Source: Flavobacteriales bacterium 34_180_T64 (GTDB taxonomy: Bacteria; Bacteroidota; Bacteroidia; Flavobacteriales; Flavobacteriaceae). Taken from it: a stretch of DNA of 24,000 nt. The notes beneath the pieces were generated by a model, which was not told the origin of the DNA, did no database searches, and saw only the letters and a list, made by a program, of their open reading frames with translations. The position numbers were made by a program, and so were the translations under genes. The stretch spans positions 155,199 through 179,198 of the forward strand of contig MAAR01000012.1 in the NCBI GenBank assembly GCA_002162765.1, in the 5' to 3' direction. Shown one piece after another: positions 1,182 through 14,670 of this stretch. Position 1 is the first letter of the stretch. Every line of letters starts with the position of its first letter.

Positions 1182-3029
1182 ATGTGTGGCATAGTTGGAT
1201 ACATTGGACATCGAGAAGCTTACCCAATAATTCTTAAAGGATTAAAACGCCTAGAATATCGTGGATATGATAGTGCTGGAATAGCTTTATATGATGGTAA
1301 TGATATCAAATTGTCAAAAACAAAAGGAAAAGTTGCGGATCTTGAAGAGCGCTTGGAAAAAGAAATTTCAACAAAAGGCTCTCTAGGTATTGGACATACA
1401 CGTTGGGCAACACATGGCGTTCCTAACGATGTGAATTCTCATCCACATTTTTCAAATTCAGGTAATTTAGTAATCATTCATAACGGAATTATTGAAAATT
1501 ATGATTCACTAAAAAAAGAACTTCTTAAGAGAGGGTACATCTTTAATTCAGATACGGATACAGAAGTATTAATTAATCTGATTGAAGATGTTATGAAACA
1601 AGATGGTATTAAACTTGGAAAAGCTGTGCAAGTCGCTCTTAACCAAGTTGTAGGTGCTTATGCTATTGCCGTATTTGATAAAAACAAACCTAATGAAATT
1701 GTTGTTGCTCGATTAGGAAGCCCTTTAGCCATTGGAATTGGAGATGATGAGTTTTTCATAGCAAGTGATGCTTCTCCATTCATTGAGTATACTAAAAATG
1801 CTATTTATTTGGAAGATGAAGAAATGGCTATTATTAGAAGAGATAAAGAGGTGAATATTAGAAAGATTAAAGATGATTCTTTAGTTGATCCATATATGCA
1901 AGAACTCCAAATCAACCTTGAACAGATTGAAAAAGGGGGTTACGATCATTTTATGCTTAAGGAAATATTTGAACAACCAAGAGCAATACTCGATACGTTT
2001 AGAGGACGATTGCTTATTGATAAAGCCATTATAAAAATGGCTGGCATTGAGGATAATATGAAAAAATTCCTCAATGCAGATCGTATAATAATTGTTGCTT
2101 GTGGAACCTCATGGCATGCTGGCTTGGTTGCTGAATACATTTTTGAAGACCTGGCTAGAATCCCTGTAGAAGTTGAATACGCTTCTGAATTTAGATATAG
2201 AAATCCTGTAATTAAAGAAAACGATGTAGTGATTGCAATTTCACAATCTGGTGAAACTGCAGATACTTTAGCAGCAATTAAACTGGCTAAATCTAAAGGG
2301 GCTTTTGTATTTGGTGTTTGTAATGTGGTTGGTTCATCAATTGCCAGAGAAACAGATGCTGGAGCTTATACACATGCTGGTCCAGAAATTGGAGTTGCAT
2401 CTACTAAAGCATTTACAACTCAAATTACCGTTCTAACACTTATTGCTTTGCGTCTTGCGAGAGCAAAAGGAACTATTTCTAGCTCCGATTATAGACATCA
2501 TTTAATTGAATTAGAGCTTATTCCTGAAAAAGTTGAAAAAGCATTAAAATCTGATGCTTACGTCAAAACCATTGCAGCTATATATAAAGATGTGAAAAAT
2601 TTCTTGTATTTGGGAAGAGGTTATAATTTCCCAGTAGCATTAGAAGGTGCTTTAAAATTGAAAGAGATTTCATATATCCATGCAGAAGGGTATCCTGCAG
2701 CAGAAATGAAACATGGACCGATTGCACTCATCGATGAGAATATGCCAATTGTGGTTATCGCTACTAAAAAAGGACACTACGAAAAAGTGGTTAGCAATAT
2801 TCAAGAAATAAAGTCCAGAAAAGGAAAAATTATAGGTATTGTTACAGAAGGAGATTACAGTGTAAGGGAATTAGCTGACCATGTTATCGAAGTTCCTGAC
2901 ACATTAGAATCTTTATCTCCTTTACTCACTACTATTCCCCTTCAGTTGCTGTCTTACCATATTGCAGTAATGCTAGAAAAAAATGTAGATCAGCCTCGAA
3001 ATCTTGCTAAATCAGTAACAGTAGAGTAA
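1182..3029 (+). CDS. glmS: Glutamine--fructose-6-phosphate aminotransferase (isomerizing)
   Basis: 615 aa. N-terminal MCGIVGY places the Ntn-glutaminase Cys at position 2. Two SIS-type sugar isomerase halves (ACGTSWHAG, SQSGETADT). Canonical C-terminal PRNLAKSVTVE. Confidence 0.97.
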   Translation: MCGIVGYIGHREAYPIILKGLKRLEYRGYDSAGIALYDGNDIKLSKTKGKVADLEERLEKEISTKGSLGIGHTRWATHGVPNDVNSHPHFSNSGNLVIIHNGIIENYDSLKKELLKRGYIFNSDTDTEVLINLIEDVMKQDGIKLGKAVQVALNQVVGAYAIAVFDKNKPNEIVVARLGSPLAIGIGDDEFFIASDASPFIEYTKNAIYLEDEEMAIIRRDKEVNIRKIKDDSLVDPYMQELQINLEQIEKGGYDHFMLKEIFEQPRAILDTFRGRLLIDKAIIKMAGIEDNMKKFLNADRIIIVACGTSWHAGLVAEYIFEDLARIPVEVEYASEFRYRNPVIKENDVVIAISQSGETADTLAAIKLAKSKGAFVFGVCNVVGSSIARETDAGAYTHAGPEIGVASTKAFTTQITVLTLIALRLARAKGTISSSDYRHHLIELELIPEKVEKALKSDAYVKTIAAIYKDVKNFLYLGRGYNFPVALEGALKLKEISYIHAEGYPAAEMKHGPIALIDENMPIVVIATKKGHYEKVVSNIQEIKSRKGKIIGIVTEGDYSVRELADHVIEVPDTLESLSPLLTTIPLQLLSYHIAVMLEKNVDQPRNLAKSVTVE

Positions 3030-3243
3030 TTTCAATCCTCAATTCTCTTATTTAATGTTATTCAGAATTAGAGATACATTTTTACATTAATCTTGTTTTT
3101 TTATCTATATTATGCGATATTATTAAATTAATCCATGAGTTTTTGTTAAATAATACTATGCGTGCATAATTTTCAAAACTAATCTTATTGTGTTAGCATA
3201 TAATTATTTATATTGCTCTACTAAATTTAACTAATTCCCTAGA

Positions 3244-6069
3244 ATGAAAACAATACTTAAAATTTCAATGCTGTTTTGTTGTGTCTTTACTTTTGGACAA
3301 ACTACAGTAAAAGGTAAAGTATCCGACAATAACGGGCAACCTTTACCAGGTGCAAATATTATTGTCGTTGGTACTACAACAGGAACTATTTCAGATTTTG
3401 ATGGTAACTATACGTTAACTGTAGATCAAGACCCTCCATTTTCAATTACTGTAAGTAGTGTCGGTTTTGACTCAGTAACTCAAGAAGTTACTATGAATAC
3501 CCAAACACTAGATTTTGTTTTAGTGGAAGGAACCTCATTAGATGAGGTAGTAATCTCAGCGTCTCGTACTCCTGAACGTATTTTTGAATCTCCAGTAACT
3601 GTTGAACGATTTGGACTTAAGGAAATAAAAAATACGGCTTCTGCTGATTTTTATGATGGACTTGAAAACTTGAAAGGGGTAGATATTAATGTAAATAGTT
3701 TAACATTTAAATCTATTAATACTAGAGGTTTCGCAACGTTTGCTAATACACGTTTCATGCAGCTAGTTGATGGAATGGATAACTCTGCTCCTGCACTTAA
3801 CTTTCCATTAGGAAATTTATTAGGTATGACAGAAACAGACATTCTAAGTGTGGAGTTATTACCTGGTGCTGCATCTGCCTTATATGGTGCAAATGCATTT
3901 AATGGTATCTTGTTTATGAGAAGTAAAAGTCCATTTGATCATACTGGAGTTAGCGGTTATGTGAAACAAGGATTGACCTCCCAAGAGGCAGCTGGTGATA
4001 ATAATTATACTGATGTAGGTATAAGAATGGCCTATAAATTTAGCGATAAGTTTGCTGCTAAAGTAAATTTCGGATATTTAAAAGGTACCGATTGGGTTGC
4101 TGAAAATACCATGGACAAAAGAAACAATGGTTTTACAAGAGCAAATCTAGATTACGATGGTGTTAACGTTTATGGAGATGAAGTATTTGCAAATATTAAA
4201 GGGGTAGCTGAAATTCTAGAGGAAACTTTAGATGCTACTGGTAATCCAATATTGCCAGCTGGAGCAAATGCCTTAGTGCCTTCTGTTGACGTTAGTAGAA
4301 CAGGTTATAATGAGGCTGACTTAACAGACTATAACGCCGAGAGTATTAAAGCAGATTGGGGCTTATATTTCCGTCCTTGGGCTGATGATTTTGAAATCCA
4401 GTATGTTGGGAAAATTGGTTCTGGATCTACTATCTATCAAGGCGCGAATAGATACGCAATCGACGATTTCTTTCTGCAACAACATAAAATAGAAATCAAA
4501 AACGATAATTTCTTCCTAAGAGGATATGTTACTGAAGATAAAGCTGGTGATTCATACGATATGGTATTTACAGGTGTGAATATTAATAGAGCGTGGAAAG
4601 ACGACAATACTTGGTTTGGCGAATATGTAGGAAACTATGTTGCAGCAACATTAGGTGGTGCTACAAATGATCAGGCACACGCTGTAGGTAGAGCAGTTGC
4701 GGAAACCGGCCGTTTTGAACCAGGATCTCCTGAGTTTGAAGCTGCATTTAATAGAAGTATTAATGACCCTAGTTTATTAACAGGGTCAAAATTTCAAGAT
4801 AATTCGAAAATTTATCATGGTGATGGAAATTATAATTTAAGTCATCTTATTGATTTTGCTGAAATCCAAGTTGGTGGATCGTATAGACAATACCAATTGA
4901 ACTCTTTTGGAACAATCTATACAGATAATGATGGACCAATTAAATATTCAGAAGTTGGTTTTTATACGCAAATTCAAAAATCGCTGGAATTATCAGAAAG
5001 TGTGGATTTAAAATTGACTGGTTCTGTACGTTATGATAAATCTGAATTATTTGATGGTTTCTTTTCACCGAGACTATCTGCTGGATTTACTGTAAATAAT
5101 AATCATAACATTAGAGCTTCTTTTCAAACAGGTTTTAGAAATCCAACGACTCAAGATTTATATATAGGACTTGATGTAGGTAGAGCCATCTTAGTTGGTG
5201 GTGCTCCAGATAATCCAGCACGTGATATTAGAAATTATGGTTTAAGTGCAACCGGACAAGCGTTGTTAGGTAGTCCTTCAATTAATTTCTCTGGTGAAGG
5301 TGCTTATAATAATTCATTCACGGCGAGTTCTGTTGCTGATGGTTTTGCTAATACTGGTAATCCAGCAGATTTGGAAATTGCAAACTCGAGTTTAGCTCAA
5401 CCAGAACAAGTAACTTCAATTGAAGTTGGATATCGTGGAAAATTAAATAAAGTTATCGTAGATGCGTCTGCTTATTACAACTCTTATAAAGATTTCTTAT
5501 CTAACGAAACCGTAATTGCTCCTTTTTATGGAGATGTACAACTGGAGCAAAATGTTCCTGGTACTTCAACGCCTCTTGCTATTGCAGCAATTGCGAATAA
5601 TGATTACCAAGTGTATCAAACTTATACCAATACAGATGCCGATGTGAGCTCCTATGGGGCTGCAATAGGAATATCTGCAAAAGTTATGAATGGTTTTGAT
5701 CTAGGATTTAATTATACCTATTCAAAATTAGATTTTGATCAGGAGGCTAATCCAGATTTTCAAACCAACTTTAATACGCCAGAACATAAAGTGAAAGCTT
5801 CGTTTGGAAAAACAGAATTATTTAAAAATTTTGGTTTCAATGTGGCCTGGAGATGGTCTGACACGTATGAGTGGGAAGCTTCATTCGCTAATGGAGATGT
5901 ACCAGCTTACCACGTTATGGATGCACAAATTAATCTTAGAGTTCCTAGTTTAAAATCGCAGTTTAAAGTTGGTGCTACCAACTTATTACAAGATGAATAT
6001 TTTACAGCTGTAGGAACAGGACTAATAGGTTCGATGTATTATGTATCATGGACTATCAATAACTTATAA
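3244..6069 (+). CDS. TonB-dependent outer-membrane receptor with N-terminal carboxypeptidase-regulatory-like domain
   Basis: 941 aa. Signal peptide MKTILKISMLFCCVFTFGQ. CarboxypepD_reg-like segment (TVKGKVSDNNGQPLPGANIIVVGTTTGTISDFDGNYTL). Plug-like segment (LDEVVISASRTPERIFESPVTVERF). Long Gly/Tyr/Asn-rich barrel with an aromatic-rich C-terminus (MYYVSWTINNL). Preceded by a 214-nt AT-rich intergenic region. Confidence 0.85.
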   Translation: MKTILKISMLFCCVFTFGQTTVKGKVSDNNGQPLPGANIIVVGTTTGTISDFDGNYTLTVDQDPPFSITVSSVGFDSVTQEVTMNTQTLDFVLVEGTSLDEVVISASRTPERIFESPVTVERFGLKEIKNTASADFYDGLENLKGVDINVNSLTFKSINTRGFATFANTRFMQLVDGMDNSAPALNFPLGNLLGMTETDILSVELLPGAASALYGANAFNGILFMRSKSPFDHTGVSGYVKQGLTSQEAAGDNNYTDVGIRMAYKFSDKFAAKVNFGYLKGTDWVAENTMDKRNNGFTRANLDYDGVNVYGDEVFANIKGVAEILEETLDATGNPILPAGANALVPSVDVSRTGYNEADLTDYNAESIKADWGLYFRPWADDFEIQYVGKIGSGSTIYQGANRYAIDDFFLQQHKIEIKNDNFFLRGYVTEDKAGDSYDMVFTGVNINRAWKDDNTWFGEYVGNYVAATLGGATNDQAHAVGRAVAETGRFEPGSPEFEAAFNRSINDPSLLTGSKFQDNSKIYHGDGNYNLSHLIDFAEIQVGGSYRQYQLNSFGTIYTDNDGPIKYSEVGFYTQIQKSLELSESVDLKLTGSVRYDKSELFDGFFSPRLSAGFTVNNNHNIRASFQTGFRNPTTQDLYIGLDVGRAILVGGAPDNPARDIRNYGLSATGQALLGSPSINFSGEGAYNNSFTASSVADGFANTGNPADLEIANSSLAQPEQVTSIEVGYRGKLNKVIVDASAYYNSYKDFLSNETVIAPFYGDVQLEQNVPGTSTPLAIAAIANNDYQVYQTYTNTDADVSSYGAAIGISAKVMNGFDLGFNYTYSKLDFDQEANPDFQTNFNTPEHKVKASFGKTELFKNFGFNVAWRWSDTYEWEASFANGDVPAYHVMDAQINLRVPSLKSQFKVGATNLLQDEYFTAVGTGLIGSMYYVSWTINNL

Positions 6070-10358: not shown

Positions 10359-10904
10359 ATGTATGACAATATAATTGTATCTGAAAGTGACAGACCAATT
10401 TGGCAAATTCCAGTTGCGGCATTTCTATTTACTCTTGCTTTAGCTTTAATTCTGAGAGCTTTTTATCTTAATGATTGGTCTTATCATGATGTAATCCTTT
10501 TAACAGAAGATTTCAAGCATTCTTCTTTGTTAGCAGCAGTTGGTGTTGGGTTTTGTTCTCAAAAACGAATTTATATTGATTTAATCAATTCCAAAATTAA
10601 ATCAGCATTTGAAATAGGCCCTCTTAAGTTTGGAAAATGGCAAACGATGAAGAATCTAGAATACGTATCCGTTTTTCATAGACCTAAAGAAAATGGTAGT
10701 TATGCTTTCGAAGTAAATCTTTGGTATGAAAAGGTTAAACGCATTGAACTTTATGAAAGAGACAACTATTTCGAGGCCTTTAAAATTGGGTTTAATGTAT
10801 CAGAAGGATTAAATATAGACTTATTAGACGCAACTGTTGCACACCAAAGTACGTGGGTAGATAAAGACAAGTGGAAACGAAAAATGAATGATGAAAATTC
10901 CTAA
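10359..10904 (+). CDS. Hypothetical 2-TM membrane protein, bio-locus paralog A
   Basis: 181 aa. Two hydrophobic segments (IPVAAFLFTLALALILRAF; SSLLAAVGVGF), then a soluble domain. Clear paralog of 16413..16892, sharing IDL..K, GKW, EY[VI]SVF, NL[WF]Y, K.IE.Y, AF, SE.LNID[LI]LDAT. Its stop overlaps the bioF start by 14-17 nt. Confidence 0.7.
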   Translation: MYDNIIVSESDRPIWQIPVAAFLFTLALALILRAFYLNDWSYHDVILLTEDFKHSSLLAAVGVGFCSQKRIYIDLINSKIKSAFEIGPLKFGKWQTMKNLEYVSVFHRPKENGSYAFEVNLWYEKVKRIELYERDNYFEAFKIGFNVSEGLNIDLLDATVAHQSTWVDKDKWKRKMNDENS

Positions 10905-12033
10905 AAAGCTACAAACCAAAATTGACCAACGTGTTAAAGAAGATGCACTACGCCAACTTGGTGAACACAGTAATATCGTGGATTTTGCTTCTAACGACTA
11001 TTTAGGATTTTCAAAATCAAGAACCATTTTTAATAAAACTCATGATTATCTTGTTGGACATGATTGTTTGCAGAATGGATCAACCGGTTCTCGCTTATTA
11101 TCCGGAAACCATCCTTTATATACAACTTTAGAAAGCATCCTTTGTGAATTCCATAATAGTGATTCAGCTTTGGTTTTTAATTCTGGTTATGATGCCAATT
11201 TAGGATTCTTTTCTTCGGTACCTCAACGCAGTGATCTCATTTTATATGACGAGTATATTCACGCTTCCATAAGAGATGGGATTCAACTTTCAAATGCAAA
11301 AGCTTATAAGTTTAAGCACAATGATATTGAGCATTTAATCTTACGTCATTCTGAACTTGTTTCAGAATCTCATCAACATATTTATATCGTGACAGAATCC
11401 GTGTTTTCTATGGATGGTGATTCACCTGATTTAAAAGGGTTCGTCGAATTCTGCAATCAAAATGACTGTTTTTTGATTACTGATGAAGCACATTCCGTTG
11501 GAGTTCACGGTAAAAACGGCATCGGTTTACTGCAAGATTTAAATCTAGAAAAAGATGTATTTGCTAGAATTATAACCTTTGGAAAAGCTTTGGGCTCGCA
11601 TGGTGCTGCAATTCTATGTCATGAAGATTTGAAGTCCTACTTAGTCAATTTTGCCCGCTCGTTTATTTATACCACAGCCTTAACTCCTCATACATTAGCA
11701 ACAATTTCGACTGCCTATAATGAAATGTTGATGACCTCTGCATTAGAAAAACTGCAGCAAAACATCAAGTTTTTCAATACTGAAATTAAACGACTCAACC
11801 TAAAACAGTTCTTTATTCAAAGTACTTCGTCTATACAATCATGTGTGTTGTCAGGAAATGAAACTGTGAAAACTATTGCTGAAAAATTACAGGTTCTAAA
11901 TTACAATGTGAAGCCTATTTTATCCCCTACAGTTCCCAAAGGAGAAGAACGCTTACGATTTTGTTTACATTCTTATAATTCTGAGAAAGAAATGACTGAA
12001 GTTTTAACCATGTTAGCTACTTTTGTGTTATAA
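10888..12033 (+). CDS. bioF: 8-amino-7-oxononanoate synthase
   Basis: 381 aa class-II aminotransferase-like. GSTGSRLLSGN, IVTESVFSMDGD, ITDEAHSVG and the PLP-lysine context TFGKALGSHGAAI. Start could be the second ATG at 10891. Carries an in-frame copy of the 31-nt hairpin element at 11344-11374. Confidence 0.9.
   Translation: MMKIPKKLQTKIDQRVKEDALRQLGEHSNIVDFASNDYLGFSKSRTIFNKTHDYLVGHDCLQNGSTGSRLLSGNHPLYTTLESILCEFHNSDSALVFNSGYDANLGFFSSVPQRSDLILYDEYIHASIRDGIQLSNAKAYKFKHNDIEHLILRHSELVSESHQHIYIVTESVFSMDGDSPDLKGFVEFCNQNDCFLITDEAHSVGVHGKNGIGLLQDLNLEKDVFARIITFGKALGSHGAAILCHEDLKSYLVNFARSFIYTTALTPHTLATISTAYNEMLMTSALEKLQQNIKFFNTEIKRLNLKQFFIQSTSSIQSCVLSGNETVKTIAEKLQVLNYNVKPILSPTVPKGEERLRFCLHSYNSEKEMTEVLTMLATFVL
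11344..11374 (+). repeat. 31-nt hairpin repeat, copy 1 (inside bioF, in frame)
   Basis: CGTCATTCTGAACTTGTTTCAGAATCTCATC. Stem ATTCTGAA/TTCAGAAT (11348-11355 / 11361-11368), loop CTTGT. Translated in the bioF frame as RHSELVSESH. Confidence 0.85.
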
Positions 12034-12042
12034 TCTTTTTAA

Positions 12043-12420
12043 ATGAAAGACAGCCATACCGTTTTAGCCGTATTTGAATATTCAACTGAAGCTCAAATCA
12101 CTAAAACTAAATTAGAATCTGAAGATATAAGAGCAATTTTGGCTGACGAAAAAACAATCGATACAGATCCATTATTAAGTCAAGCAATTGGTGGTGTCAA
12201 ATTATTGGTTCATAACGATGATTTCGATAAAGCTGTAAAAATCTATAACGATATAAGAGCCTATAGAAAAGATGTAAATGGAAATGAGGTACATTGTGTA
12301 AATTGTAATTCTACTCGGGTTTTAATGGCGCCGCCTAACCGTAAAAAATTCTTATATATGTTATTCCCTTTTTTCGAAAAAAGTAAAAATATGTGTAACG
12401 ATTGTAAAACTATATTCTAA
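12043..12420 (+). CDS. Hypothetical protein: DUF2007-like N-terminal domain plus C-terminal CxxC...CxxC zinc ribbon
   Basis: 125 aa. The N-terminal ~70 aa resemble the small 'putative signal transducing' DUF2007 fold pattern (my recollection). The C-terminus has CVNC (x30) CNDC. Starts 9 nt after the bioF stop, and its TAA abuts the bioD ATG. Confidence 0.55.
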   Translation: MKDSHTVLAVFEYSTEAQITKTKLESEDIRAILADEKTIDTDPLLSQAIGGVKLLVHNDDFDKAVKIYNDIRAYRKDVNGNEVHCVNCNSTRVLMAPPNRKKFLYMLFPFFEKSKNMCNDCKTIF

Positions 12421-13029
12421 ATGAAGCGCATATTTGTAACTGGTATTTCTACAGATGTTGGTAAAACTATTGCTTGTGCAATACTTACAGAAGCCCTTAA
12501 AGCGGATTACTGGAAGCCTATACAAGCTGGAGAATTAGAATCTTGTGACACAAAAAGAGTTCAGCAATTAGTGGCAAACAAAATTTCAAAATTTCATCAA
12601 AATTCATATGCATTACATACTCCTATGAGTCCTCATGCGGCGGCAGATATTGATGGTATTTCGATTGATTTAAAATCTATTAAACCGCCAAAAACTAAAA
12701 ACCACTTGATTATTGAAGGTGCAGGCGGATTATTGGTACCAATAAATGACACTCAAACAGTTTTGGATATAATGGAACCTAATTCAAAAGTGATTGTCGT
12801 TTCAAGACACTATTTAGGTAGTATAAACCATACCCTTTTAACGGTTAACCTTCTTAAAGAAAAAGGTTTTGACGTGTCAATTATTTTTAGTGGTGATGAA
12901 CACGAAACAACAGAAGATATAATTACAAAAATGACCAACGTGCCAATTATTGGCCGTATAAATGAAGAGCCTTACTTCGATAAAAATGTTGTTAAGGAAT
13001 ATGCAGAATTATTCAAAGAAATGTTATAA
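12421..13029 (+). CDS. bioD: Dethiobiotin synthetase
   Basis: 202 aa. P-loop VTGISTDVGKT, EGAGGLLVP motif, size and context. Confidence 0.9.
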   Translation: MKRIFVTGISTDVGKTIACAILTEALKADYWKPIQAGELESCDTKRVQQLVANKISKFHQNSYALHTPMSPHAAADIDGISIDLKSIKPPKTKNHLIIEGAGGLLVPINDTQTVLDIMEPNSKVIVVSRHYLGSINHTLLTVNLLKEKGFDVSIIFSGDEHETTEDIITKMTNVPIIGRINEEPYFDKNVVKEYAELFKEML

Positions 13030-13030
13030 T

Positions 13031-13061
13031 CGTCACACTGAACTTGTTTCAGTGTCGCATC
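13031..13061 (+). repeat. 31-nt hairpin repeat, copy 2
   Basis: CGTCACACTGAACTTGTTTCAGTGTCGCATC. Stem ACACTGAA/TTCAGTGT (13035-13042 / 13048-13055), loop CTTGT. Begins 1 nt after the bioD stop. Confidence 0.85.
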
Positions 13062-13068
13062 ATAATTT

Positions 13069-13347
13069 ATGAAATCTAGTTATGTTTACATATTAACCAA
13101 TCCATATAGAACTACATTTTATATTGGAGTAACAGACAATTTACATAAAAGATTAGAAGAACATTACGATGAAACTGCTTCAAAATTTACTAAAAAATAC
13201 AACATTAAAGATTTGATTTATTTTGAAAATTTTACTGAAATAGAACAGGCGATTGCAAGAGAAAAACAATTGAAAAATTGGCATAAAGCATGGAAATTGA
13301 ATTTAATTAAAACATTAAATCCAACTTTAAAAACTTTAGATTATTAA
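13069..13347 (+). CDS. GIY-YIG nuclease-family small protein (COG2827/UPF0213-like)
   Basis: 92 aa. YVYILTN...FYIGVTDNLHKRLEEH...FTKKY...LIYFE...AIAREKQLKNW matches the GIY / YIG / R / E signature order of the small stand-alone GIY-YIG proteins. Confidence 0.9.
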   Translation: MKSSYVYILTNPYRTTFYIGVTDNLHKRLEEHYDETASKFTKKYNIKDLIYFENFTEIEQAIAREKQLKNWHKAWKLNLIKTLNPTLKTLDY

Positions 13348-13362
13348 ATTTACAATACAAAT

Positions 13363-13393
13363 AATGAGATGCTGAAACAAGTTCAGCATGACG
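13363..13393 (-). repeat. 31-nt hairpin repeat, copy 3 (inverted)
   Basis: Reverse complement reads CGTCATGCTGAACTTGTTTCAGCATCTCATT. Stem ATGCTGAA/TTCAGCAT (13369-13376 / 13382-13389). It supplies the ATG used by the ORF track as the bioA start. Confidence 0.85.
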
Positions 13394-13404
13394 AACGACC
13401 AACA

Positions 13405-14670
13405 ATGACATTACAAGAGAGAGATAAAAAACACCTCTGGCATCCCTTGACGCAACATAAATTGCATCCAGATCATATTGCAATCACAAAAGCTAAAGGA
13501 TGCATGTTGACTGATGAAAACGGGAGATCCTATATTGATGCTATCGCTTCTTGGTACACTTCAATGTATGGGCATTGCAATTCGTATATCACTTCTCAGG
13601 TTACTGAACAAATGCAATCTCTGGATCAAATTGTTTTCAGTGGATTTACACATGAGCCCGCCATTCAATTGAGTGAAGCGCTTATTAAAATACTCCCTGA
13701 AAATCAAAATAAAATTTTCTTTAGTGATAATGGTTCAACTAGTGTTGAGATTGGAATAAAAATGGCATTGCAATTTCATTTCAACAATCATGAAAAGAGA
13801 AATACTTTAATTGCTTTTGAAGATGGGTTTCATGGGGACACATTCGGAGCCATGAGTGTTTCCGGATTGTCCGTTTATAATGGCCCTTTTGAAGACTATT
13901 TTTTAGATGTTAAACGGATTCCTACACCTAATGGAAAGAATCATGATTTTATTTTAGATGCGTTAAAATCCATAACTGAATCTCACAAAGTGGCAGGTTT
14001 CATTTATGAGCCTTTAGTTCAAGGTGCGGCGGCAATGAAAATGCATAATACCGAAGGATTAGATTTAATATTGAAATTTTGTAAAGACCATAAAATCATT
14101 ACTGTTGCTGATGAAGTTATGACAGGATTTGGTAAAACTGGCCGTAATTTTGCATCGGATTATATGTCGAATAAACCTGATATTATATGCTTGAGTAAGT
14201 CGTTAACAGCTGGATTATTACCAATGGCAATTACGTCCTGTTCTCAAGAAATTTACGAAGCTTTTTATAGTGATGATATAAGTAAAGGATTGTTTCATGG
14301 GCACACCTACTCTGCTAATCCATTGGCTTGTAGAGCAGCAATAGCAGGCATTGAATTATTACAATCTGAAGAAATTCAAGAAAACATCAAACGTATTATA
14401 GCATCTCATCGCAGGTTCGATGAACGCATAAAAAACCATTCGAAAGTAAAATCAACACGTCAAACAGGAATTATTTTCGCATTAGATTTAAACATTGAAA
14501 TGGAGCGCTATGGAAATTTACGAGACAAACTCTTCAATTTCTTTATGAACAATGGCGTGTTTTTAAGGCCACTTGGAAATACAATCTATATTCTAGCGCC
14601 TTATGTGATTAGTGAAACTGAATTGAAAAAAGTGTATGCGGTTATTGAAGAGGCTTTAAATACCTTCTAA
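13405..14670 (+). CDS. bioA: Adenosylmethionine-8-amino-7-oxononanoate aminotransferase
   Basis: Class-III aminotransferase. LWHPLTQH near the N-terminus, DEVMTGFGKTG, and the PLP-lysine context ICLSKSLTAG. I place the start at ATG 13405 (MTLQERDKKHLWHP). The track start at 13369 adds MLKQVQHDERPT, which is simply the translated hairpin repeat. Confidence 0.9.
   Translation: MTLQERDKKHLWHPLTQHKLHPDHIAITKAKGCMLTDENGRSYIDAIASWYTSMYGHCNSYITSQVTEQMQSLDQIVFSGFTHEPAIQLSEALIKILPENQNKIFFSDNGSTSVEIGIKMALQFHFNNHEKRNTLIAFEDGFHGDTFGAMSVSGLSVYNGPFEDYFLDVKRIPTPNGKNHDFILDALKSITESHKVAGFIYEPLVQGAAAMKMHNTEGLDLILKFCKDHKIITVADEVMTGFGKTGRNFASDYMSNKPDIICLSKSLTAGLLPMAITSCSQEIYEAFYSDDISKGLFHGHTYSANPLACRAAIAGIELLQSEEIQENIKRIIASHRRFDERIKNHSKVKSTRQTGIIFALDLNIEMERYGNLRDKLFNFFMNNGVFLRPLGNTIYILAPYVISETELKKVYAVIEEALNTF

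Follow-up and report, generated by a model that had tools for sequence, protein, structure and literature searches.

A putative Ssn-type nuclease module with a divergent, AT-rich hairpin at the bioD-bioA junction of a marine flavobacterium

The spacer between bioD and bioA of Flavobacteriales bacterium 34_180_T64 (Flavobacteriaceae) appears from its sequence to hold a member of the Ssn/SRM class of nuclease modules, with a hairpin of a divergent, AT-rich subtype. It lies within a stretch of 24,000 nucleotides (nt) of contig MAAR01000012.1 (positions 155,199 to 179,198), hereafter called the window, whose own numbering is used below. Ssn nucleases are single-domain GIY-YIG proteins of approximately 94 amino acids (aa) (CDD cd10448, GIY-YIG_unchar_3), and their genes are bracketed by inverted, CGTC-tagged hairpins, known as NTS in Neisseria and as SRM generally (Chenal et al. 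2025, Nat Commun 16:2388, PMC11893778). We consider it highly probable that the module is SRM-ssn-SRM in identity and that its nuclease acts on its own hairpins. This kind of system is already known, having been published in 2025, and the hairpin-gene-hairpin architecture is not new. What is new here is the AT-rich hairpin subtype, the habit of occupying biosynthetic operon junctions, and comparisons that speak for gain and loss precisely at a stop/start overlap.

The gap between bioD (dethiobiotin synthetase; 12421-13029, + strand; Pfam AAA_26, 1.9e-54; 52-78% identical to the BioD proteins of relatives) and bioA (adenosylmethionine-8-amino-7-oxononanoate aminotransferase; 13405-14670, + strand; Aminotran_3, 1.4e-88) is 375 nt in length and is almost exactly filled by a hairpin, an open reading frame (ORF) and an inverted hairpin. 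Coordinates, Pfam and repeat search all agree with the preliminary description on this layout: a left hairpin (13031-13056, + strand), the ssn homologue encoding a 92-aa single-domain GIY-YIG nuclease (13069-13347, + strand), a right subterminal spacer (ATTTACAATACAAATAATGA; 13348-13367, + strand) and a right hairpin (13368-13393, - strand). The CGTC tags point outward, the left one towards bioD and the right one towards bioA. The TAA stop codon of bioD ends 1 nt before the tag of the left hairpin, and the true ATG of bioA, at 13405, is 11 nt past the right hairpin, with an N-terminus (MTLQERDKKHLWHP) that aligns with the BioA starts of relatives.

The GIY-YIG domain (PF01541) covers residues 4-78 of the 92 (E-value 1e-14), and there is no second domain. 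Homology to the Neisseria proteins was run in the reverse direction, against a Neisseria gonorrhoeae ORF rather than N. meningitidis CAX49033.1: in a tblastn search of PLSDB (7.3 Gb) with the window protein, the Neisseria matches are two N. gonorrhoeae chromosomes filed there as plasmids. The matched GIY-YIG ORF is 42.4% identical to the window protein over residues 6-90 (92% coverage, E-value 2e-14), which lies within the published rule for homology (tblastn E < 1e-10, more than 75% of the length), and it is surrounded by 9 canonical NTS repeats in 1.4 kb. In the gap-free alignment, Y7 (VYIL), Y18 (FYIG) and E65 (REKQ) correspond to Y6, Y17 and E64 of SsnA, the N. meningitidis enzyme; the substitutions Y6A, Y17A and E64A abolish cutting by SsnA (PMC11893778). 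A sequence search of the PDB gives UPF0213 proteins as the nearest structures, with weak matches (E-values 0.0024 and 0.05), and a search of NCBIfam with the window protein returns only sub-threshold matches. The length of the protein is constant at 92 aa, with 70-89% identity across genera. The ratio of non-synonymous to synonymous substitution (dN/dS) between ssn and its homologues is 0.07-0.18, which points to a gene under strong purifying selection.

The left hairpin, CGTCACACTGAACTTGTTTCAGTGTC, reads CGTC-ACACTGAA-CTTGT-TTCAGTGT-C. Read on the - strand, the right hairpin is CGTCATGCTGAACTTGTTTCAGCATC, or CGTC-ATGCTGAA-CTTGT-TTCAGCAT-C, and the inverted pair is 82% complementary across 34 nt. 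A third copy is located in frame within bioF (11344-11369, + strand), where it is translated as RHSELVSES. The repeat thus consists of a CGTC tag, a 9-bp (base pair) palindrome and a C: tag and C are present in all three window copies, and the C is 98% conserved among 250 instances from the 80 homologous loci described below. The same elements matter to SsnA, for which the C right after the palindrome is key to binding and the three nucleotides before the palindrome are key to cleavage (PMC11893778). Two variable stem positions compensate among the three window copies (TT/AA, AC/GT and TG/CA). As single-stranded DNA (ssDNA) the copies fold into a stem of 8-9 bp with a 5-nt loop, at -5.3 to -7.1 kcal/mol and z-scores of -2.9 to -4.1 (left, -6.8 kcal/mol, z -3.15; right, -6.7 kcal/mol, z -3.5; bioF-internal, -5.3 kcal/mol). 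For the 15-mer core, the window has 3 occurrences where 0.10 would be expected, a count reached in 0 of 100 shuffles. Rfam gives no match in the window at the gathering threshold.

Four points weigh against assigning the locus to the Ssn/SRM class. The published SRM search string, HGTCWYN(0-2)YYVSBRHN(0-5)WNVSBRGN(0-2)RNCYNB, has 0 matches in the window or in the whole 3.16-Mb genome; it misses the hairpin because it demands a G+C-rich stem. The biochemistry on Ssn proteins comes entirely from members outside the Bacteroidota. An altered palindrome sequence abolishes SsnA activity (PMC11893778), so that the specificity for this hairpin would, by analogy, have had to co-evolve with the protein. 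Finally, there are 18 hairpin copies here versus hundreds in Neisseria. The search string is an aid derived from 29 genomes and not a definition of the family, and a subtype-specific hairpin pattern was used in its place; its failure indicates that the hairpin of this genome is of a divergent type.

The 18 copies of the hairpin in this genome (17 intact, one broken) are mostly intergenic, with two or three within coding frames. Eight of them pair as 4 inverted doublets, + then -, at 51-57 nt from start to start. With its ORF removed, the cassette (103 nt) aligns end to end with the 4 gene-less doublets at 60-71% identity, including their inner spacer, which the right subterminal spacer resembles. 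The ssn gene therefore sits mid-way in an otherwise gene-less doublet, like a RAYT gene among REPINs. Two sites are unusual: at C15:41890-41965 one copy is split in its loop by approximately 47 nt, the far end of the insert resembling the right subterminal spacer (AACAAATAATGA), and at C13:515100-515170 two hairpins of different subtypes, with CCGAA and CTGAA stems, stand back to back within an opposite-strand ORF of 965 codons.

The pairing of gene and hairpin is conserved well beyond this genome. A scan of one genome per species yielded 80 loci with proteins 52-88% identical, covering at least 8 phyla: hosts include Bacteroidota (several classes), Ignavibacteriota, Calditrichota, Chlorobiota, Melainabacteria, a lineage of the candidate phyla radiation (CPR) and others. 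In most of the 80 loci the same hairpin subtype, GTCA-NN-C[T/C]GAA-loop-TTC[A/G]G-NN-TC, is found just upstream (+) and just downstream (-) of ssn. In the window, 12 nt separate ssn from the hairpin core on its upstream side and 20 nt from the one on its downstream side, and the two cores are inverted. Most close homologues have a hairpin of the same type, mostly with a CAC-type stem, 7-17 nt upstream, and a CATG-type hairpin approximately 1-16 nt downstream. Left and right hairpins differ consistently in subtype in most of the close flavobacterial homologues, as they do in the window: the left combines a CAC-type stem with a TCGCA or TCACA tail, the right a CATG stem with a TCTCAT tail. Among 80 distinct copies, one stem position covaries as GC (22), CG (22), TA (18) and AT (4). 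An AT-rich hairpin class that is paired with an Ssn subclade in at least 8 phyla thus escapes the SRM string, so that published accounts underestimate how widely the system is distributed.

This recurrence makes it scarcely credible that the arrangement is fortuitous, with hairpins accumulating in any spacer and a small, unrelated ORF caught by chance between two. Hairpins of other families do occur without a gene in the bioD-bioA spacers of other relatives (L032, L057 and L035), as such chance adjacency would have it. Against it, the core has 8 exact occurrences in the genome where approximately 0.007 are expected (calculated from base composition), and the arrangement is repeated in most of the 80 loci.

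Comparison of bioD-bioA junctions suggests that the module has been inserted into this operon. Relatives sampled without regard to ssn have bioD followed by bioA in 16 genomes, and the cassette is at this junction in 0 of the 16. In approximately 6 of them the two genes abut or overlap by ATGA, an arrangement seen in relatives L034, L036, L037, L045, L048 and L050, and these are the empty sites that the preliminary description had proposed looking for; the rest of the 16 have spacers of 16-103 nt, some with gene-less doublets of other SRM-like families. In a survey of genome contigs, the cassette occupies the junction in 9 species of approximately 8 genera, among them Flavivirga, Seonamhaeicola, two Flaviramulus, Winogradskyella, Tenacibaculum, Jejudonia and Ulvibacter, so that the insertion is not private to the window genome. 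A tenth case is Lutibacter sp. NORP37, which has a second cassette copy at bioD-bioA: two cassettes stand in one operon (L065, approximately 2450-3900), in the order bioF-ssn-bioD-ssn-bioA. Other positions in bio operons are represented by one genome with the order DUF2007-ssn-bioD and one in which the cassette is accompanied by bioD and then an unrelated gene.

Occupied and unoccupied sites are interleaved in a tree of BioD and BioA (624 columns). Parsimony gives 9 changes, at least 6 of them forced by well-supported branches, and occupancy is no more clustered than shuffled labels. A genome with the ATGA overlap (G011) is sister to the occupied Winogradskyella (Shimodaira-Hasegawa-like approximate likelihood ratio test [SH-aLRT] 97), and another unoccupied genome with the ATGA overlap (G022) groups with the occupied Lutibacter and Tenacibaculum (SH-aLRT 100). 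Empty sites that are sister to occupied ones bear out the earlier reading of an insertion into a packed operon.

Several families of hairpin share this junction as a hot spot. In L057 and L032 the bioD-bioA spacer is occupied by inverted doublets that contain no gene and belong to a G+C-rich hairpin resembling NTS (GTCATTCCTGCGCAGGCGGGAATC ... GATTCCTGCCTTCGCAGGAAT), and sister genomes carry the ssn cassette. In Winogradskyella ursingii (L060, 2501-2779) the ssn copy has an in-frame stop at codon 35 and is probably a pseudogene; bioD in the same locus has lost its stop codon, and its frame continues into the left hairpin as far as the TGA of CCCTGAAC. Among the 250 hairpin instances, no conserved target motif was found outside the tag beyond a C (55%) or T (27%) at position -1 of GTCA. 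TAA often abuts the tag at the left junction, which may merely be the stop codon of the upstream gene.

A different account of the locus is that ssn is a domesticated, vertically inherited host gene and that its hairpins are mRNA stabilisers, processing sites or attenuators that tune bioA relative to bioD. The strong purifying selection would fit, as would the constant co-orientation of ssn with the host operon; compensatory stem changes are as compatible with RNA as with ssDNA, a function as RNA elements has been put forward for CGTC repeats (PMC3733652), and the right hairpin has a terminator-like score, on the - strand only. We nonetheless regard this account as unlikely, given the scattered occupancy on the tree of the flanking genes, with pristine empty sites beside occupied ones, and the presence of the same module in unrelated operons. 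Further, in SsnA, which does not bind RNA, it is the oriented CGTC tag and the C behind the palindrome on which ssDNA binding and cleavage depend, and the in-frame copy within bioF is hard to square with a regulatory element.

The module's occurrence in other operons is also seen in the ssn tree. Here genomic context is strongly clustered, with 16 changes versus 35 in shuffles, and the window ssn falls in a group of 9, all in bio operons (SH-aLRT 91). Among the sampled relatives, the nearest homologue (73% identity) carries the same pair of hairpins and is located at the trpB-trpA junction of another genus. Other members of the well-supported flavobacterial ssn clade (26 rows) are at trpB-trpA, at trpD-trpC and upstream of hisF, and homologues outside this clade are at hisC-hisB and hisD-hisC. 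Distant homologues lie between two genes that we take, from a start peptide only, to be sucA and sucB. Wherever both neighbours are known, ssn is co-oriented with them. One cassette lineage is thus found at one junction in scattered hosts, beside untouched sites, since the flanking-gene tree is interleaved and the ssn tree is clustered by context.

In the trpB-trpA spacer of the window genome itself (C13:37806-38010, approximately 200 nt), the hairpin is present as a degenerate copy (GTCATTCTGAAC...GCATCTCA), and behind it stands an inverted hairpin that has a GTCA tag and belongs to another family (TGTCATTGCGAGAAGCAAAGCGACGTGGCAATCT). It was rejected as a clean empty site on account of these two hairpins, which may be the remnant of a cassette like that at trpB-trpA in other genera.

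Repeated occupation of the bioD-bioA junction in different lineages, beside empty alleles, would also be expected of a free-standing GIY-YIG homing endonuclease (I-TevI/Seg type) that cleaves the empty junction in duplex form and is then copied into it during repair, with hairpins that are only incidental. The lack of a target duplication is in keeping with homing, and the protein weakly matches TIGR01453, the profile for group I intron endonucleases (E-value 9e-6). This match scores 25.8 bits versus a cut-off of 56.05 and is confined to the first 41 of 215 profile positions, that is, to the GIY-YIG core. A protein of 92 aa lacks the DNA-binding domain required by every characterised homing enzyme of the GIY-YIG type, and Ssn family members show no duplex cleavage (PMC11893778). 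As the hairpins are conserved with the gene across phyla, they are not incidental, and related cassettes are at several different junctions. Homing of this type is very unlikely in our judgement.

To return to the insertion of the hairpin-bracketed ssn module, we suggest from these comparisons that it was gained or lost at operon junctions over evolutionary time, and we somewhat favour the view that it is or was mobile; for any particular mechanism of movement our confidence is lower. Scattered occupancy could arise from site-preferring insertion, from precise loss, or from the spread and removal of alleles by homologous exchange. Several considerations tell against mobility: the occupancy may reflect allele exchange by homologous recombination and not transposition; neither an excision product nor within-species polymorphism was seen in the sequences compared, nor a target duplication at the compared junctions, the last in agreement with the preliminary description, which saw none here either; and the occupied sites were chosen by the presence of ssn, which inflates their share. 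Synonymous divergence (dS) of ssn is 0.7-0.95 versus 1.6-2.4 for bioD and bioA, or approximately half, in several pairs (window, L055, L058, L059 and L062), values that come from 92 codons and are saturated; the low figure could stem from later cassette transfer or from codon constraint. The proposal of a minimal selfish or mobile cassette is upheld in part. Indirect evidence for a mobile cassette comes from the trpB-trpA copy, the other trp, his and bio junctions and the doublets matching its ends, whereas a purely selfish element is not established, in view of the purifying selection.

A stronger claim would be that SRM-ssn-SRM and the gene-less doublets form an active, autonomous ssDNA transposon whose sole protein is the 92-aa GIY-YIG nuclease, with precise entry and exit at bio, trp and his stop/start junctions and no target duplication. 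We hold this to be rather doubtful. If true, the enzyme would be of a transposase type so far undescribed in prokaryotes, and the module would rank with the smallest mobile elements that are self-contained. Movement of the hairpin-gene-hairpin unit is posed as an explicit open question by Chenal et al. 2025 (PMC11893778).

The biochemistry of SsnA suggests how the module might work. SsnA recognises its hairpin in ssDNA form alone and makes its cut a few nucleotides to the 5' side; it acts neither on duplex DNA or RNA nor on the complementary strand (PMC11893778). The earlier suggestion that the nuclease may act on the hairpins has thus been demonstrated biochemically for homologues (PMC11893778), and for the window protein we infer ssDNA cleavage by analogy. 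The protein would bind the hairpin in single-stranded DNA and cleave that strand at a point a few nucleotides to the 5' side of the CGTC tag; the stem and the C just after it would serve for binding, and the GTC just before the stem for cleavage. Judging from the characterised homologues, duplex DNA and RNA would not be acted on. Suitable occasions would be replication, repair, transformation or conjugation. With inverted hairpins and outward tags, the predicted cuts would be just outside the cassette and on opposite strands, and after excision the expected joint would be near ...AAATGTTA/TGACATTA..., the module having presumably been inserted at what is the ATGA stop/start overlap in relatives. 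To our knowledge, GIY-YIG enzymes do not rejoin DNA, so that host repair or recombination would have to complete the copying. Together, the module, the gene-less doublets and the single hairpins (18 copies in all) would make up a REP/REPIN-like population.

The ATG of ssn is 6 nt from the conserved tail of the left hairpin and 12 nt from its core. A scan for sigma-70-type sites found nothing above chance, and the consensus applies poorly to Bacteroidota. With too little space for a separate promoter, and with the same orientation as the operon, ssn is presumably co-transcribed with bioD and bioA as part of the bio operon. The Neisseria Ssn system limits the integration of transforming ssDNA (PMC11893778), and by analogy a similar role is possible for the window system.

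Two further small GIY-YIG genes are present in the genome, 36-42% identical. The preliminary description had proposed testing whether such paralogues are flanked by the same hairpins; neither bears the window hairpin, and other repeat types are found there instead. The paralogue at C13:202564-202794 is flanked by inverted GTCA-tagged hairpins of other sequence, with a CTCGAG-type stem, and that at C3:347882-348130 by GAGCGGAGTCGA-type repeats, an unrelated type. From the flanking peptides, we take the neighbours of the latter to be hsdM and hsdS (type I restriction). Each GIY-YIG paralogue seems to have its own repeat type.

The genome is 3.16 Mb in 19 contigs and has a low G+C content (33.5%). 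The bio order begins with bioF (10888-12033), followed by a DUF2007-like gene (12043-12420) that lies between bioF and bioD, and bioB is located further along the same locus. The measured gaps, 9 nt from bioF to the DUF2007-like gene and 0 nt from the latter to bioD, confirm the tight packing of the neighbouring bio genes reported earlier. The longest ORF for bioA begins at 13369, inside the right hairpin, and adds MLKQVQHDERPT (13369-13404) to the protein; the hairpin-encoded prefix MLKQVQHD is also found on an unrelated downstream ORF in locus L061. A consequence for annotation is that the hairpin lengthens predicted proteins spuriously at the N-terminus (MLKQVQHD...) and places inserts within reading frames (RHSELVSES).

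Ssn nucleases are a discovery of 2025, with a role described so far in Neisseria. The locus and its relatives form a clean comparative case, with one lineage at one junction in several genera, pristine sister sites, relocation and matching doublets, which makes mobility testable in a marine flavobacterium that is culturable and non-pathogenic.

Several known systems resemble the module in part. REP (repetitive extragenic palindromic) and REPIN sequences are associated with RAYT (TnpA-REP) proteins (Nunvar 2010; Bertels and Rainey 2011, PMC3116915; Ton-Hoang 2012). As in those systems, inverted copies of a hairpin found genome-wide flank a single-copy nuclease gene, and there are gene-less doublets and long persistence under purifying selection. 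The enzyme here is GIY-YIG and not HUH Y1, the tag is CGTC and not GTAG, and the copy number is much lower; membership was rejected on enzyme and tag. IS200/IS605 elements, single-strand "peel and paste" transposons, share subterminal hairpins recognised as ssDNA, the absence of target duplication and a very small enzyme. Their end hairpins are on the same strand, however, while those here are inverted; the window protein has no HUH motif, and GIY-YIG enzymes are not known to join DNA (strand transfer). Membership was rejected because there is no HUH protein and the hairpins are inverted.

CGTC-tagged palindromic repeats have been reported in Bacteroidetes, including a flavobacterium, and no dedicated enzyme was found for them (Di Nocera et al. 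2013, BMC Genomics 14:522, PMC3733652). The window hairpin resembles these in structure, being a short palindrome that is tagged at one end and carries a short tail, and in distribution, with inverted dimers common and some copies within genes; with 18 copies and 4 doublets, it is likewise a multi-copy family with inverted dimers. It differs in that the repeat here flanks a GIY-YIG gene, as in Chenal et al. The Ssn/SRM modules differ from the window locus in that the stem here is AT-rich (NNCTGAA, with a CTTGT loop) and is missed by the SRM string, that the 18 copies are in a free-living marine flavobacterium and not a symbiont or pathogen, and that the module sits in a biosynthetic operon at a stop/start overlap, the word "operon" being absent from PMC11893778. 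The likeness to them extends to both gene and repeat: a GIY-YIG protein of approximately 92-94 aa that is 42% identical to an NTS-embedded ORF and keeps the catalytic Tyr/Tyr/Glu, and inverted CGTC hairpins around the gene, with a C after the palindrome and further copies scattered in the genome.

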